DNA of 63,926 nucleotides, the filler included, from Collodictyon triciliatum (lineage: Eukaryota), in assembly GCA_043381765.1 (NCBI GenBank). It is 9 parts of 9 records of this genome, joined end to end, with 100 filler letters (N's around TTAATTAATTAA, not from the genome) between each part and the next. Parts side by side here need not be neighbours in the genome. Positions count along the whole stretch, not along the records: positions 14,247 to 21,262 come from JBHJMP010004103.1; 8 more parts are not named here. One strand, given 5' to 3'. The notes below the pieces were generated by a model, which saw only the letters and a list, made by a program, of their open reading frames with translations, was not told the DNA's origin and did no database searches. The stretch's first letter is position 1. Every line of letters begins with the position of its first letter. Both the position numbers and the translations under genes were made by a program. Below, one piece after another: positions 14,247 through 28,281 of the stretch.

Positions 14247-14287
14247 TTTTTTTTTTTTTTTTTTTTTTTTTTGTGTGTACCGGTTTG

Positions 14288-14318
<31 letters not shown>

Positions 14319-14362
14319 TCTTCCTTTCAATTTTGTGCAGGATAGTGGAGATGTTGGCATGG
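14247..14362 (-). mobile_element. Short poly(A)-tailed copy of the retroelement 3' terminus
   Basis: Long T run followed by ATTCTTCCTTTCAATTTTGTGCAG...GTTGGCATGG, matching 6592-6665. Confidence 0.5.
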
Positions 14363-14455
14363 TTTACCCTTTTCTAAGAAATGAAATGAACTTTTTAATT
14401 TAACCCTTATTTTCATAAATAATAATTTAGTTTAATCGCACTGAATCATAACTAG

Positions 14456-16445
14456 CGCTCTGCCTTGTTTGGTTTGAATACATGGACAGCCTTGATTTGT
14501 CTGGTCTACACAAACCAAGAGGGAAATAGTGTTGGTGCGTTTGCCGTTTATATGGTTGGAATTCCCTTTGCAATGGGCTCGGCATGGTATCTCGCAGGTA
14601 TTTTTTTTATTATTAAAAATCGATTAAAACTCAATATCAGAAAGATTTGTGATAATAAGTACTTTATCTGATGGCAGGACGAAGAATGCTGTTATTGAAT
14701 GATGACCATATGGAGAATCGAAACGTTGCAGCTGTCGACCAAAAAGTATTTAGTAATCCCTTCATGATGGAACTTTCTACCCGAACACCATTAAATCCAT
14801 TGAAAGGACAAGTGACACCAGCCACGTACGCTGATTTTTTTATTTAATCAATAATGATAAAGTATATTTTAATATTCATCCTCAAGTTCACCAAATAAAC
14901 GTGTAGGTTGGAAAACACAAAATACCTCTATCAACAAGGCGTGAAAAAATTTCCGAAGTCGATTTATGTTCGAATAAATTACACCTTGTTTCTACTGTGC
15001 TACAATACATACACAGACCCGAGCGAAATCCAGATGCACGTCCACGCTGTAAGTTCTACACATGTTTATCTTTGTTTTTTATTTTATTTTTTATTTTCAT
15101 GCCCTTACTAAGTTGCATTTTTTTTATTGCGTTTCTCATTATGTGAAAAATTAAAATTCTTTGAATCCGTGAATGATTTAGTTCATAAATTTTCCAACAA
15201 ACAAGGTTCTTGGGATGAGAAAATCGACTATCGATGAGCGATACCTATCCTTTTATCTGCGAAAAATTTGGCAGCAAGATATGGAAACAAAGTACGGAAA
15301 CATCCCCATATTATACTTCGTTTCCCCCTTTTCTCACTCTACCTCTTTTCACTTATTGATTTACGCAAGCATATTATTGATTGCTATTACTCATATATTT
15401 TATCATATGATCAATTGATACGCTTGAAACGTACCATTAATGGAAATGACCATTTCTTTTGATAACCACAACCGTTCTTAATGATATATTATCATGGGCC
15501 AAATGATACTAGAATGCAGTATATTTTCTTAACCTCGACATCTCCTCCTCTATCATAAATGAAGCATATGTGTTTTAATAAAATGCTAATAGACACTATT
15601 TCTTTTCATCGCGCTCTTTTTGCAAACAAAAAATAATAATCAGGGGACTAGGATTCATGAATGACGGAATGCAAATCACTGACTTTATGTTCCTGAAGCG
15701 CCAAATGATATTATCCAAGTAAAAAAAAAAACCTCCCTTTAAATCTTTGTACTTTTTTCTGAATGAGTATTTATATTTTTTTAATCTACTCAATCATTTA
15801 TCAGCACTATATCTCATGTAACATTCCCTTTCTTTGCACAGGTACCGAAACATAAGTCTCTTATATATAATTTTTTCCATTAAGGCACTTACACAACGAG
15901 ACAAAAAGATGCCTTCTTGAATTCTGGAGAAACTTATTAAAGCCTGGTATTACCGATGCCCAAATTGAGAGCAAAGCAGAAGATTTTGAAGCATTAGAAC
16001 AAATGACTCTTGCATGTTATGAGTCGATATTGCGAAAGTTTCCTCGCAATCGTGAAATGTTACGCTCGTTTGGTCAGTTCTGGATAGACATTTACAACAA
16101 TGAGAATGTGGCAAACGAGTATTTTCTACTAGCTGATGAAATTGAAGAGGAAGATAGCCAGGTTGATAAAATCGAAATATATTTGCACATAATTGAAAGG
16201 AAGAATAAAAAACCTGAATATATTTATTTGGATGAAAGATATTAAACACAAACCATTTCATATTAAGAATGTAAGAAGGAAAAAAAATCCTGTATATAAG
16301 CTATCCCTAGCGTCTCAACATACCATATGCAATTAATATATTTTGTAGAAAAATAAACAAACAAACAAACAAACAAACAAACAAACAAACAAACAAACAA
16401 ACAAACAAACAAACAAACAAACAAACAAACAAACAAACAAACAAA

Positions 16446-16502
<57 letters not shown>

Positions 16503-19500
16503 CACGCAAAAGCGAGGTTCGAGGGAGCAAACAACGGGACGCAATCCAGCCATCCTATGATATCCGAGACCACAACCGATAGTGACCAGGTGATTTTAAT
16601 TTTCTGACGATTGGATTTGAAATTTTTTTTGAGAATATCACACTATGTATATGCACACAGACAAATTCAGTGTTGTGCATATTGTTTCTTTTAAAAATTT
16701 TTAATGAACATAAAATACTGATAAGTCATGTTATTTGAGAAGAAATCTCAATCTTTCAAGGATGACCAAAGTCAAGCTGGGAAGAAAAAGAAGCGAGGCG
16801 ATCAAGAGAATGCCTCTGAGTACACAACTTCAAGTAAAGAGAAAGTTCGGTAAGTGAAGCAGCAATAATCTCAAATTTACATATTTGTGTTTGGTTCATG
16901 TCCACATGGAATCAATCTACATTTAATGTTTTTTCAACTGATTCATTTAATCACCGCACAGGCTGCGTCTTCTCAAGAATAAAATAAACCGCATTCGAAA
17001 AATTGACATCGAAATTGACTCAAATGCCGTCAATCGCTTCTCTACTTTGTTGAAAATACTTCGTGTAATTTTGTTCGCCATTCCTATTGCAGGTAATTTT
17101 TCTCGTATATATGCCCCCAAATCTTAATTCCGTATCTATCTCATTGAAGTTCAATCAAGTAGTTTACAATATTTTATCCGTGCTTGACTCTATGCTTTGA
17201 TTATATAATTCATATAAAAATTAGGCTTTGCTGTCTTCACTCACTCAATCAAGCTGCTTCAGTACAACGCAGGAGTTTTGGAAGAGACACACATGCAGTT
17301 TTTACGCTTCGACCAAATCAATTACTCTGTCCGTTCTCAGATACTGAACGTGATGGTAAGATAGTTTGGAGGCTTTTTGTCCCATTTATTAATCTACTAG
17401 TAATTATTTTTTTTTTAAAAAAAAATACTATGATATTCTCCTCAAATCAAACAAAAAGGTAACCAACCTCGAGCCAGGAAATTACGGATGTGCTTCAGAC
17501 CCAGCATGTATCCAGCAAGCTCGCGATTCTGCGCTCGAATATGTGCTAACGTTCCAGGATAACTACGTGAAGATGTACACAACGTTGAATCCTTCGTTTA
17601 CCAAATTGAAAGACTACTGGTCAAAGGGGTCGATTCGCGTCCAGTTTTACACTGGCGAGTTTTTGAAACCCGCAACAGAAACGCTGAGCTTTCTTGAGGC
17701 ACTCAATTACTTCAGCACCAGCGCAAATAACGTGTTGAAGCTAGGTAGGAAATTTTGACATTCACATTTGCATAACAACCGAATGTTCCAAAAAATAACT
17801 TATCCCTTTGTCAAGACTGAATATCTCTTGCTGATTTTATTTCTCGTGCTGATGCGCATTTTCAGGTTTTGATGTCGATTTAACAAAGAATGCAGATTAT
17901 CTTTTTGTGACAAAGAACGGCCCTGGTGTTATCTTTGATAGTATTATTAAGCTGGAAAACATGCTTCTTGATGAGGAAGTGGTCATCATGAACCAGTTTT
18001 TCATTTCGATTGGATGCTTGATGGGCACGATGCTTGTTGCAATTATATGGGTTGCGTTATTATGGGTTCCAAATTATGAGAAGGTCAGAGAAGAGGTCAG
18101 TGCACTGGGAAAGCTTCGTGAGATTCCACGACCTGGTAAGAACGAAGCACTTCATTCGCGTCCAATGTTACCAATATATAAGACAGAAAATTGAATTTTG
18201 ATATCTTCAAAATGAGTCGGTTTATTTATGTGCCGAGTTCTCATTTCATGCCTAATTATCTGTTCTAGAAATCATCAAGATGTGTAATTTGTATCGTATG
18301 AATCGAGACAACCAAGAGGACGAAGAGTTTACTGCGTTTGCCATGAGCGCTCGGACGATGAAAAAGACGTATACATACCAACGAGTCTCTATGCTGTGCT
18401 CCGTTCTTTTTGCGATGCTTGGATTTGTCGTAGTCATTACAGTCGGGATCTACAAAGCCTCCTTGTGAGTGTGAATATATAAGCAAGGGAACAAACTCAG
18501 TGTCTTATGTTGAATTAGTAGGCTCGTGGCTTCATATGATTTTTTTTACACAAAGTATGCTATTATATAATTGCATAAACTGCTCACTTTTATTTTCATA
18601 CCTCCGATAAGGTTGTCACCCGTTGCAAACGATGCTGCGCTGCGACAGTCATACAGCGCGTCAGCCTACTATAAACTGCGAGACCATTACCTGACCGAGA
18701 ATGTGACTTCCTACATGCGAGACGATTTGGCAGTGACGCGAGAAGTACGGCTCCTTATTGATATCACTATTACACCATCTTTTTCTTGTTCATTGCATTC
18801 ATATTATCATATAACATTTTTCTTGCGTGGCTTTATTCGTGAGTTTTATATAAAGAAGGGATTTTATCCTTAATAACAATATCGAATCACCATGCAGAAT
18901 GTGATGACAACAAACAATAAACTTGTTCTTGCTTCGTGGGGAAATGCCGAAGAAGAAAAATGGATGCTTGAACGTTGCAGTGCCAATCTGGCCCTGGGTA
19001 TTCAACGGTATATTGTTTCGTTGATGTTCAACACCATGCAGGTTGGAAGCCTTTTTGTTGAGACATTCTTATTTTTATTGTTCTTATATGACAATATTTG
19101 TTCATAAATTCAAGTTCCTTTCATAATCGATTGATATTCATATTTAAGATGTTTTTTTTTTAAAATTAGGAATCCTACCAAGCTCTTCATTTATCCTTTC
19201 CTGATCGAATCAAAGCCGCTGCCACAAACTATTCTTACGGAAGCTTTGATGGATTCATCATGGAGTGCATGGTCAAAATACAAAAGCATTACAACGATGC
19301 GGCCATCCAAACACGCAGCGACACGCGAATGCAAGGGAATGTGTACTTTTGGCTAATCTGGCCGGTGTTCTTCCTCACATTCGGTAAAATCATATGAAAA
19401 AGTTAGATAAGATGTATTTTTTTTTTTATGAATTCATATCTTATCATTTTTCGTTTTAGAGACAAACCCTCAAATTTATCGTTCCACTTCAGCACTTTGT

Positions 19501-20916
19501 AGTTTTATTTTTCATACATAATTTTACGGAAAATTAGGATTCTATCTTCCAAATATGTTTCGCAAAAGTGTGCGTGATGCTACGGCCCGCTCGGCTCGAA
19601 TCCTTCGAATGATACCGCCCTCCATCATCGAGTCCACACCAAAGCTCAAGGATTATGTAATTGACACGGGAATCATCAAATTGGAGAAGTTTGGAGACCT
19701 CGGGTTCATCAACGATGTGCGAGAAGGAGATGTGGATATGCCAAGCATCAGCCGTCGGAACTCCGAACAAGGTTAATATCCTGGCCAATTTAAAGATATG
19801 TAGCCCACCCAGACATTTCAACTTCAACAGCAACTTCATATTATTATCGATGTGCTTACTTTTTTTAAAATAAAAAATAATAATGTAATGACAAGTTTTA
19901 AAAGGCCAATATATTTGTATACATACAGGCTTGAATGTTAAGTCAGACACGAATGCAAACACGAATGCGAACGCAAACAGCAATGTGAACGGCGCAAGTG
20001 ACAGTGAGCGAGACACGCTCGACCTGTCATTGTCAGCTTCAATCCCACTCAAAGCACGCACAAAGAGCGAAGGCACTGGCAAGAAAATATCAGACCAGGA
20101 AGGACACAGTTCAGACTCTGACAGCAGCCCGTTCGGAATGGCCGGACCAATACCACTTACGAGCGAAAAGACGACATCCTCAGGAGGAATGCTGCAACCA
20201 AATATGAACCGAGTAGGAATGGCACTGAGCGGAGTGACCGAGGAATCCACGTCGCGCACAGCATCCATTCCGACCACACCGCACACTGCAAGAACGGACG
20301 ATATGCAGCCGAATCTCAACTCTTTATCCCGCGACTTTCTGGCCGAAAATGCCTGTGGGGATGGGAACGTGGAAAAGGAGGGAGGCAAAGACATCGCCGA
20401 TATTGTTGTGGATGTGCGAGACGAGTTGGCGAGCGAAAATCCTGTTTATGTGGAGACTTCGCCAGTCGAAATATTTGGTATGTATCGCCTCATCTAGTCA
20501 GATTGAAAAGAAAAGCATTTCAGTTTGGATACATAGCATTTTTTTTTCCTTTATTCGATTCAAAGTTTGGATACATAGCATATTCAACTCATATAATCTT
20601 TTATATTGTTTGAATGGGTTCATGTGCTTATTTGACTTACTTTTATTCTGTTGGATGTGTTTTCCCAGATGGCCAAATGTCTTACAGAAAAGACACAGAC
20701 GATGTGATGGACGAGATTAAGAGAGAGCTTGCCGAGTCGCAGGCTGTGGCAGACAATGGAAGACCACTAATGCAGTGCGAAATCTGCAAAAGCACTGCAG
20801 CCTGCATGACGCTTTATCCCTGCGGACATAGCCAATTCTGCTCGGCCTGCGTGGAAGGGAAAGCCCGGTGTCCACATTGCCTGAAGGCCATCCAGTGGCG
20901 ACAAACCAGCGAATAG
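14456..20916 (+). CDS. TmcB/TmcC-family multipass membrane protein, 5'-partial, no PAS domain, C-terminal C3HC4 RING finger
   Basis: TPR-like segments KKFPKSIYVRINYTLFL and YESILRKFPRNREMLRSFGQFWIDIYNN...YFLLADEIEE. Repeated extracellular/TM modules. TmcB-type juxtamembrane motif RSARILRMIPPSII. Phase-consistent introns at 19772 and 20478 connect to CEICKSTAACMTLYPCGHSQFCSACVEGKARCPHC. Confidence 0.8.
16183..16212 (+). mobile_element. Intronic ~30-nt copy of the retroelement 3' terminus
   Basis: TTGCACATAATTGAAAGGAAGAATAAAAAA is the near-exact reverse complement of 14311-14340. Confidence 0.5.
16355..16498. repeat. Intronic (AAAC)n microsatellite plus poly-A
   Basis: Visible tandem run. Confidence 0.97.
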
Positions 20917-21162
20917 CCGCGTGCCAGCAAAATCCAACTTACATTGTTCTAATTGTTCTAATTTTTTCTGAGGATTAATTACTAAGCAATCGAGAATGAA
21001 TCAATCACTAAAGGAGAATAAATAAACGATCTGAAAATTTTACATTTAAAATGCTGGTTTATTTATTTACTTCTTTTTATGAATGTTACAAATTGTACTG
21101 CATGTCACGATACGCCTTCGTCTTCAATGTTCTCTTTCTCTAAATGTCACACACACCCACAC

Positions 21163-21262
21163 TTTCTCTTTCTCTTTCTCTTTCTCTTTCTCTTTCTCTT
21201 TCTCTTTCTCTTTCTCTTTCTCTTTCTCTTTCTCTTTCTCTTTCTCTTTCTCTTTCTCTTTC
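21163..21262. repeat. (TTTCTC)n microsatellite at contig end
   Basis: Visible tandem run. Confidence 0.97.

Positions 21263-21760: not shown

Positions 21761-28281
<6,521 letters not shown>

Follow-up and report, generated by a model that had tools for sequence, protein, structure and literature searches.

TmcB-type proteins, which belong to the tiny macrocysts (TmcB/TmcC) family PF25474, are spread over many lineages of protists, and next to nothing is established about how they work. In Dictyostelium discoideum, tmcB is credited with a role in cAMP signalling of sexual development, a statement carried as a secondary citation in two papers (PMC12750705, PMC8516963). A comparable layout is described for the transmembrane adenylyl cyclases (TMACs) of Trichomonas vaginalis; these proteins, 1450-1700 residues in total, begin N-terminally with six or eight helices, continue in the cytosol with a conserved domain of ~300 residues and then with four or six helices that surround two extracellular domains, and end in a cytosolic C-terminal effector whose cyclase activity has been demonstrated (PMC2914791). 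Our analysis of a stretch of DNA of 63,926 nucleotides from Collodictyon triciliatum (assembly GCA_043381765.1; hereafter the window) reveals a gene in which a multipass scaffold of the TmcB type ends in a RING domain of the C3HC4 class. The window consists of separate contigs of ~7 kb each, strung together with spacers, and the gene lies on contig C4103 of the organism's own genome (G000; Table 1). The combination of TmcB and RING appears to be undescribed, and both blocks, like membrane RING ligases, are already known; no paper on a TmcB-RING protein was found in the literature searched, which held few subscription journals and left supplementary domain tables outside.

The TmcB-RING gene of contig C4103 is confirmed as real. 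That scaffold and RING form one gene, as a preliminary description of the window had proposed, is borne out by transcript-derived proteins of Diphylleia rotans and by spliced contigs. The closest named relatives of the gene are proteins from the D. rotans transcriptome, the source of P0001, P0004, P0006, P0011, P0014 and P0016. P0001, found by a search with the TPR exon, is a transcript open reading frame of 1434 residues, marked complete, that contains both TPR_TmcB (52.9 bits) and zf-C3HC4_3. It is collinear with all 19 exons of the window gene, with 42-100% identity over the first 17 and 23 of 43 identical residues in the RING core. Its relative P0004 and the more distant P0011 likewise contain TPR_TmcB and zf-C3HC4_3, and the three fusion reading frames come from two gene clusters. 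P0001 and P0004, which share one transcript cluster, are identical over 1200 residues and then carry different linker and RING tails; the switch point falls within an exon of the window gene, and the difference reflects either an exchange of tails or close paralogues merged into a chimera during assembly.

Contigs of runs X1 and X3, which come from one study and whose RNA status is a guess, were aligned to 16495-21120. They skip six of the 12 model introns in this interval, including 19772-19928 and 20478-20668, so that the two junctions next to the RING (19771/19929 and 20477/20669) are both seen spliced; four junctions of module 2 are also observed spliced. At the splice of 19772-19928 the contigs carry 20 divergent letters at the beginning of the following exon. 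The X2 run gave one record, and 16495-18200 is almost without contig cover. Three contig joints that are not GT-AG (18449-18602, 20439-20697 and 20494-20642) were set aside. The spliced contigs are ~95% identical to C4103, and their differences are matched in C2032 at 14 of 21 positions, in C5191 at 14 of 18 and in C2225 at 10 of 19; since this sharing is only partial, the contigs are from a close allele, paralogue or strain.

The genome itself adds to this picture. A RING stands at the 3' end of six loci (C4103, C2032, C2225, C761, C2364 and C1129), and in C761, C2364 and C1129 a single open frame, of 340, 201 and 288 codons respectively, runs from just past the motif exon through the RING. 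Close copies of the C4103 gene conserve its exon bounds, with exons 85-98% and introns 51-90% identical.

The gene model contains 19 exons (14456-20916) that join into a frame of 1201 residues without internal stop. Each of the 18 introns has GT-AG ends and a length of 80-352 bases; their GC content is 0.21-0.35 against 0.46 for the exons. The TPR block ends at 16161, the C-terminal array of membrane helices begins at 17047 and both late introns are in phase 1, all as first described; of the junctions given then, 19771/19929 and 20477 stand, but the last exon begins at 20669, not 20670. Position 14456, taken originally as the start of the gene, is not a true start. The contig end at 14247 truncates the gene on its 5' side and removes ~307 N-terminal residues relative to P0001; a further exon was looked for within 14247-14455 and none was found. 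The lost part is present in the paralogues C2032, C12818, C1935 and C5191. For the TPR exon, an acceptor at 15842 was rejected because it brings stops and an apparent frameshift, both of which are removed by 15885, in agreement with P0001 and C5191. Genetic code table 6, used in the first listing of reading frames, was dropped, since the standard code yields an open spliced frame and recoding is unneeded.

Table 1. Features of the TmcB-RING gene and its contig (positions along the window)
Feature	Position	Strand	Details
Contig G000:C4103 (JBHJMP010004103.1), carrying the gene	14247..21262	.	Left end truncates the gene
First exon on the contig: final helix pair of the N-terminal membrane block	14456..14597	+	Aligned to P0001 308-355, 29/47 identical
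Four exons (14678-14825, 14907-15048, 15206-15291, 15644-15718): cytosolic helical region before the TPR block	14678..15718	+	69-100% identity to P0001; bounds identical in C5191
TPR_TmcB exon (PF25474)	15885..16161	+	Pfam match 15886-16161, E 1.4e-12, 48.1 bits, cut-off 27; 77/93 residues identical to P0001
95-residue interval, no PAS (exons 16500-16589, 16740-16849, start of 16962-17092)	16500..17046	+	
Module 1: outer helical bundle of 179 residues with cysteine pair, flanked by two membrane helices	17047..18053	+	Exons 16962-17092, 17225-17355, 17459-17744, 17866-18135; fold matches sensor bundles of chemoreceptors and histidine kinases
Module 2: outer helical bundle of 154 residues with cysteine pair, flanked by two membrane helices	18394..19551	+	Exons 18269-18464, 18612-18744, 18898-19041, 19170-19383, start of 19538-19771
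ILRMIP motif, end of the helix after the last membrane span; scaffold terminus family-wide	19600..19617	+	
Phase-1 intron	19772..19928	+	Spliced in X1 and X3 contigs; conserved in C2225
Linker exon, 183 codons, Ser/Thr- and acid-rich, predicted disordered	19929..20477	+	30/183 residues identical to P0001 (16%); P0002 748-921 pLDDT <50
Phase-1 intron preceding the RING exon	20478..20668	+	Spliced in X1 and X3 contigs
Last exon: acidic stretch, RING, 11-residue tail, TAG stop	20669..20916	+	
C3HC4 RING, spacing C-2-C-11-C-1-H-3-C-2-C-6-C-2-C	20776..20880	+	zf-C3HC4_3 (PF13920), E 4.7e-08, 33.1 bits, cut-off 27
Leu at the linchpin position of the RING	20881..20883	+	

Membership in the TmcB family is indicated by three features. 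TPR_TmcB scores above its cut-off, four C-terminal helices surround two large loops and lead into an IL..IP helix, and the N-terminal membrane block shows as seven hydropathy peaks in P0001 72-325, with matching exons in C5191, C1935 and C12818. In the three best named Atlas clusters, TPR_TmcB is the sole common family. No PAS domain lies between the TPR block and the membrane modules, as the preliminary description had held: Pfam, applied exon by exon, gave no match to a PAS family at E <= 1 in any of the 19 exons and none in P0001, and it detected PAS in the positive controls (an exon of C4104, E 6.7e-07; P0018, E 1.8e-15). The same searches of the 19 exons and P0001 gave no match to a cyclase domain. 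The 95 residues of the interval include 13 Lys and 19 Ser/Thr and form a disordered stretch with one basic helix, and their counterpart in the model of the orthologue P0002 (pLDDT <50) is coil plus one helix with zero strands. The missing PAS had been regarded as an unusual feature. In the TPR_TmcB protein clusters scanned, a sample biased toward relatives of the gene, PAS occurs in 1 of 11 and RING in 2 of 11, so the absence of PAS is ordinary and the RING is the distinctive feature.

The PAS-bearing gene of the family at 21761-28281 sits on a different contig, C4104 (7015 bases), by whose end it is truncated on the 3' side. Its sister, P0018 (1965 aa), terminates just past the motif without an effector domain. 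A tandem arrangement of the RING gene and the PAS gene was rejected, as the two are on separate contigs; the contigs of the window are separate records placed in order of size, and adjacency of the two TmcB genes is thus unsupported.

A scaffold tree (FastTree, 21 sequences, 1054 columns, tails excluded; all G000 rows besides C4103 are pseudo-proteins built from profile-matched exon pieces) recovers one PAS-less subfamily with SH support of 1.0. This subfamily divides, with major nodes again at 1.0, into clade B, which is RING-bearing (P0011, C761, C1128 and C2364), and a group that unites clade A (P0001, C4103, C5191, C2032 and C1935) with the RING-less P0006, P0014 and P0016. The scaffolds of clades A and B are <35% identical and their linkers are unalignable. 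Either the RING was gained once and then lost, or it was gained twice; a tree of the RING domains alone is too weak to choose between one and two origins. The genome also holds apparent RING-less counterparts, namely C1855 (with gaps), C2731, and C5439 with C6953, and C1935 has a sequence gap at the expected position of the tail. A fragment at C7995:460-543 (L013) resembles the clade-A RINGs over their second half and shares their tail signature, with no recognisable first half in the frames inspected; it may be the missing tail of C1935, or else a degenerate copy. Clade A is represented by at least three gene copies (contigs C4103, C2032, C5191, C2225, C14063 and C12818) with 80-96% nucleotide identity including introns, and recent paralogues, divergent alleles and mixed strains cannot be told apart among them.

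The tail behind the IL..IP motif varies across the family. Outside the PAS-less subfamily, a hemerythrin domain follows ~10 residues past the motif in C1451 (L050:6973-7817), C2436 (L052:96-694, minus strand) and P0023, all of them PAS-less; P0018, of the PAS type, and P0020 and P0022 of Cyanophora terminate just past it. The RING fills this variable slot, which in paralogues is empty, of low complexity or occupied by hemerythrin. The RING would not bring the family its first effector, given the hemerythrin tails in the same genome and the activity reported for Trichomonas cyclases of like described topology (PMC2914791). In the isoforms P0017 and P0024 the hemerythrin domain is missing wholly or in part.

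The TmcB-RING fusion was found in two related organisms only, by searches that are insensitive. A word-based protein search with the whole scaffold returned only the protein itself among 4533 candidates and missed known relatives of 28-33% identity, and a TPR profile search gave 8 proteins among 8000 scored. Two metagenome scans gave no relative, none of their 586 and 600 pattern matches being confirmed. P0009 and P0015 were discarded as spurious matches, being repeat-rich and without a matched stretch.

The RING belongs to the RING-HC class, with C3HC4 order and the IAP-type spacing 2-11-1-3-2-6-2, and its closest solved structure is XIAP (E 6e-06). All eight zinc ligands are kept in all nine RINGs of the family. 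The identity of the RING core to P0001, seen against the 16% of the linker, is counted as selection on the RING. Besides the linchpin, the positions that we take to face the ubiquitin-conjugating enzyme (E2) lie in loop 1, the central helix and loop 2. In the window RING, the Ile of loop 1 and the Pro of loop 2 are present, and the Lys of the central helix and the His of loop 2 are polar. A hydrophobic residue two past the first ligand is kept in 8/9 family RINGs, and the RING of C2364 is without the loop-2 proline. An Arg linchpin is not present in the window gene, which has Leu directly after the last zinc ligand, the position given for the linchpin in PMC7667886. Across the family this residue is Leu, Met, Lys, Gly, Asn or Asp, and the loop-2 residue is His, Gln, Asn, Asp or Glu.

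As controls we used RINGs of the same genome. Of its 106 matches 39 were examined, 38 of them pattern-complete, and the removal of L070, which proved to be a family member (C1129), left 37; L089 was left out, having no full RING by pattern. Eleven of these controls have the same ligand spacing as the family. Six RINGs of the genome (L073, L075, L082, L091, L092 and L094) are closely similar to one another, with an Ala linchpin followed by a common acidic stretch, and this group looks like a recent expansion.

In AlphaFold models of P0002 (mean pLDDT 66.5, 7 sequences) and P0010 (74.8, 12 sequences), each outer loop of the C-terminal modules forms a helical bundle that runs on into the membrane helices on either side. 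The best fold matches are the NasR NIT domain, which covers both loops (Z 15.5, root-mean-square deviation (rmsd) 3.6, 241 aligned), PcaY (Z 12.5, rmsd 2.1, 140 aligned) and NarQ with the membrane helices counted in (Z 11.5, rmsd 3.8, 191 aligned); HK9, Vc1313 and Tsr are other top matches. Neither model had a Foldseek match at E <= 0.001, and profile searching of solved-structure sequences found RINGs only and no match to the loops. The N-terminal membrane block had no clear fold match within the whole-model search, in which it was not searched alone. The predicted loop fold fits a sensor, and sensor homology is unproven. At least two cysteines occur in each outer loop in 5/5 sequences, and such pairs suit a location outside the cell. 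Four helices separate the TPR block from the RING, which places both on the same side of the membrane, and we infer that this side is the cytosol.

We give about an even chance to a reading in which the TmcB-RING protein is a tethered ligase, either of low basal activity or E2-selective, that would be driven by proximity and would tag itself or neighbouring receptors. The whole protein would have ~1500 residues and comprise the N-terminal membrane block, the TPR block, the two modules, the ILRMIP helix, the linker and the XIAP-like RING. Its outer bundles would bind a small ligand or a partner, like chemoreceptor sensor bundles, and the receptors would cluster. Since the linker between ILRMIP and RING, 270 residues long, mostly disordered and flexible, would not relay a rigid helix movement, the RING would most likely act by proximity. 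It would tag the tail of its own protein, or membrane proteins close by such as RING-less paralogues, and so mark them for uptake or degradation. The protein would then be a module for receptor down-regulation rather than a classical signal output. Working ligases with a linchpin other than Arg count in favour of an E2-selective ligase. XIAP is an active ligase with a Tyr linchpin (PMC12326332), Doa10 functions via Ubc6 with His and Rad18 has Leu (PMC7667886), and TRIM8, with Asn, is selective for UBE2N, 30/66 TRIM RINGs being without Arg (PMC13769585).

Several observations weigh against this reading. The linchpin is Arg in 0/9 and Lys in 1/9 family RINGs, as compared with Arg in 8/11 and Arg or Lys in 11/11 of the same-spacing controls; among all 37 controls, Arg occurs in 24. 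With near-identical copies collapsed the contrast with the controls has a Fisher p of ~4e-4, which is overstated because the sequences are related. The residue two past the seventh ligand, in loop 2, is hydrophobic in 0/9 family RINGs, 10/11 same-spacing controls and 27 of the 37, and the Lys of the central helix in the window RING stands at a position that is hydrophobic in 11/11 same-spacing controls. A Leu linchpin in RNF38 weakens binding of E2-ubiquitin 18.5-fold, and Met and Lys keep most of the residual activity, according to PMC12326332. De novo designed helical bundles score Z ~11 against the outer loops, and N-glycosylation motifs give no help in telling presumed inner from outer parts. 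The spliced contigs represent the ~95% identical copy and one study, and no single contig bridges the membrane part and the RING, which are connected by an overlapping chain. Finally, three RING-less paralogue clusters of D. rotans nest inside the RING-bearing subfamily, so the RING is dispensable for the scaffold. On sequence grounds, the residue departures lower the ligase claim without refuting it, and ligase activity is uncertain.

It is possible, though we would not expect it, that the RING is instead an adaptor that binds zinc but is itself no ligase. It would pair with a second, active RING ligase or with some other partner in the cytosol and make the protein a receptor or scaffold that recruits ubiquitin machinery. 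Non-catalytic partner RINGs of this kind include BARD1, BMI1 and MDMX. An adaptor is favoured by the drift of the positions facing E2-ubiquitin, set against zinc ligands and a terminal strand that both clades retain, and by the strong contrast with the control RINGs. However, linchpins other than Arg are common in working ligases, as the TRIM count and XIAP, Doa10 and Rad18 illustrate, the hydrophobic residue after the first ligand is retained in nearly all family members, and the candidate partner remains hypothetical.

A ligase switched directly by its ligand, in which binding to the outer bundles would turn on ubiquitination and the RING would be the signal output in place of the cyclase, seems unlikely to us. 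The scaffold topology is as described for the Trichomonas cyclases, where the cyclase is C-terminal (PMC2914791), C1451, C2436 and P0023 have hemerythrin behind the same motif, and the modelled outer loops look like chemoreceptor sensors. On-off control by clustering would also suit a RING that is weak and dimer-dependent. But hemerythrin lies within ~10 residues of the motif and the RING comes only after the long linker, the same scaffold occurs in RING-less paralogues, and the ligand is hypothetical. The broader claim of a receptor ligase class, in which chemoreceptor-type outer bundles would control a RING on the same chain so that an outside cue directly switches ubiquitination, and in which TmcB would be a protist receptor chassis with an exchangeable output (cyclase, hemerythrin, RING or none) behind a conserved helix, is likewise improbable, if slightly less so.

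There is little to recommend the view that the RING is a decaying passenger of an old fusion, heading for loss. It is lost or absent in P0006, P0014 and P0016 and apparently in C1855, C2731 and C6953, and three clade-A copies give silent to replacement counts in the RING core of 4:2, 4:3 and 0:3, with no clear strong constraint; yet eight ligands, their exact spacing and the terminal position are kept across two divergent clades. That the RING is a separate downstream gene and its join an artefact of reading is largely refuted, for although the frame stops immediately if intron 19772-19928 is retained, leaving a protein without the RING, and assemblers can merge paralogue transcripts, as the common part and differing RING tails of P0001 and P0004 recall, both RING-proximal junctions are spliced in two runs, the fusion recurs in transcripts from two clusters, and uninterrupted frames of 201-340 codons pass through the RING in C761, C2364 and C1129.

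Intron 16162-16499 contains a CAAA microsatellite and a poly-A run immediately before its AG, with no pyrimidine tract; this A-rich acceptor is common to C2032, and the downstream exon is confirmed by P0001. In the last intron, a short element at 20535-20568, present there in two copies, attracts many unrelated contigs at high depth and is probably a common genomic repeat.

Through its RING tail, a receptor family that has received little study may have a connection to ubiquitin tagging, although the RING is without some of the residues on which strong ligases rely. The RING tail is small, soluble and assayable, and thus offers a direct biochemical test of a TmcB member. Should the RING prove active, the protein would be a membrane ubiquitin ligase that arose independently of those in animals and fungi, in a lineage close to the base of Amorphea. 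Should it prove inactive, the family would provide a natural series of RINGs in which the zinc sites persist and the usual catalytic residues are lost. RING, hemerythrin and cyclase tails together suggest that the scaffold accepts exchangeable C-terminal modules.

The RING has the same ligand spacing and extreme C-terminal position as the RING-HC domains of the XIAP/cIAP/MYLIP/CGRRF1 type (PF13920). It differs from XIAP-type proteins in having no BIR or other known substrate domain, a Leu linchpin, a polar loop-2 residue and the central-helix Lys. Its tail is two residues shorter than that of XIAP and has no aromatic residue at the IAP-dimer position. Membrane-embedded RING ligases of the receptor-controlling kind (RNF43/ZNRF3, MEGF8-MGRN1 and RNF145, with Doa10 and Hrd1 of PMC7667886) likewise combine a membrane anchor with a cytosolic RING, and receptor down-regulation by such ligases serves as our working analogy. 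Compared with these membrane ligases, no sequence relation was found beyond the RING, and the scaffold and outer bundles are of the TmcB type.

The outer bundles are alike in predicted fold and in their membrane-bundle-membrane layout to bacterial four-helix sensor bundles (PcaY, Tsr, NarQ/NarX and the NasR NIT domain; Z 10-15.5), from which they differ in showing 4-12% identity, no sequence-level match, and no HAMP, kinase or methyl-accepting domain. The described topology of the TMACs matches that of the C4103 protein, with a class III cyclase there and a RING here. The top Atlas match of P0001 is a Parabasalia-led TPR_TmcB cluster (score 0.91), and this lead, together with the described topology, points to a putative kinship with the TMACs. 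The likeness to Dictyostelium tmcB comes through the Pfam family and description rather than direct alignment. With the TmcB/TmcC family as a whole, the protein shares TPR_TmcB, the N-terminal membrane block, the four C-terminal helices and the IL..IP helix; to these it adds a long linker and a C3HC4 RING, and its lack of PAS is common to most members examined.

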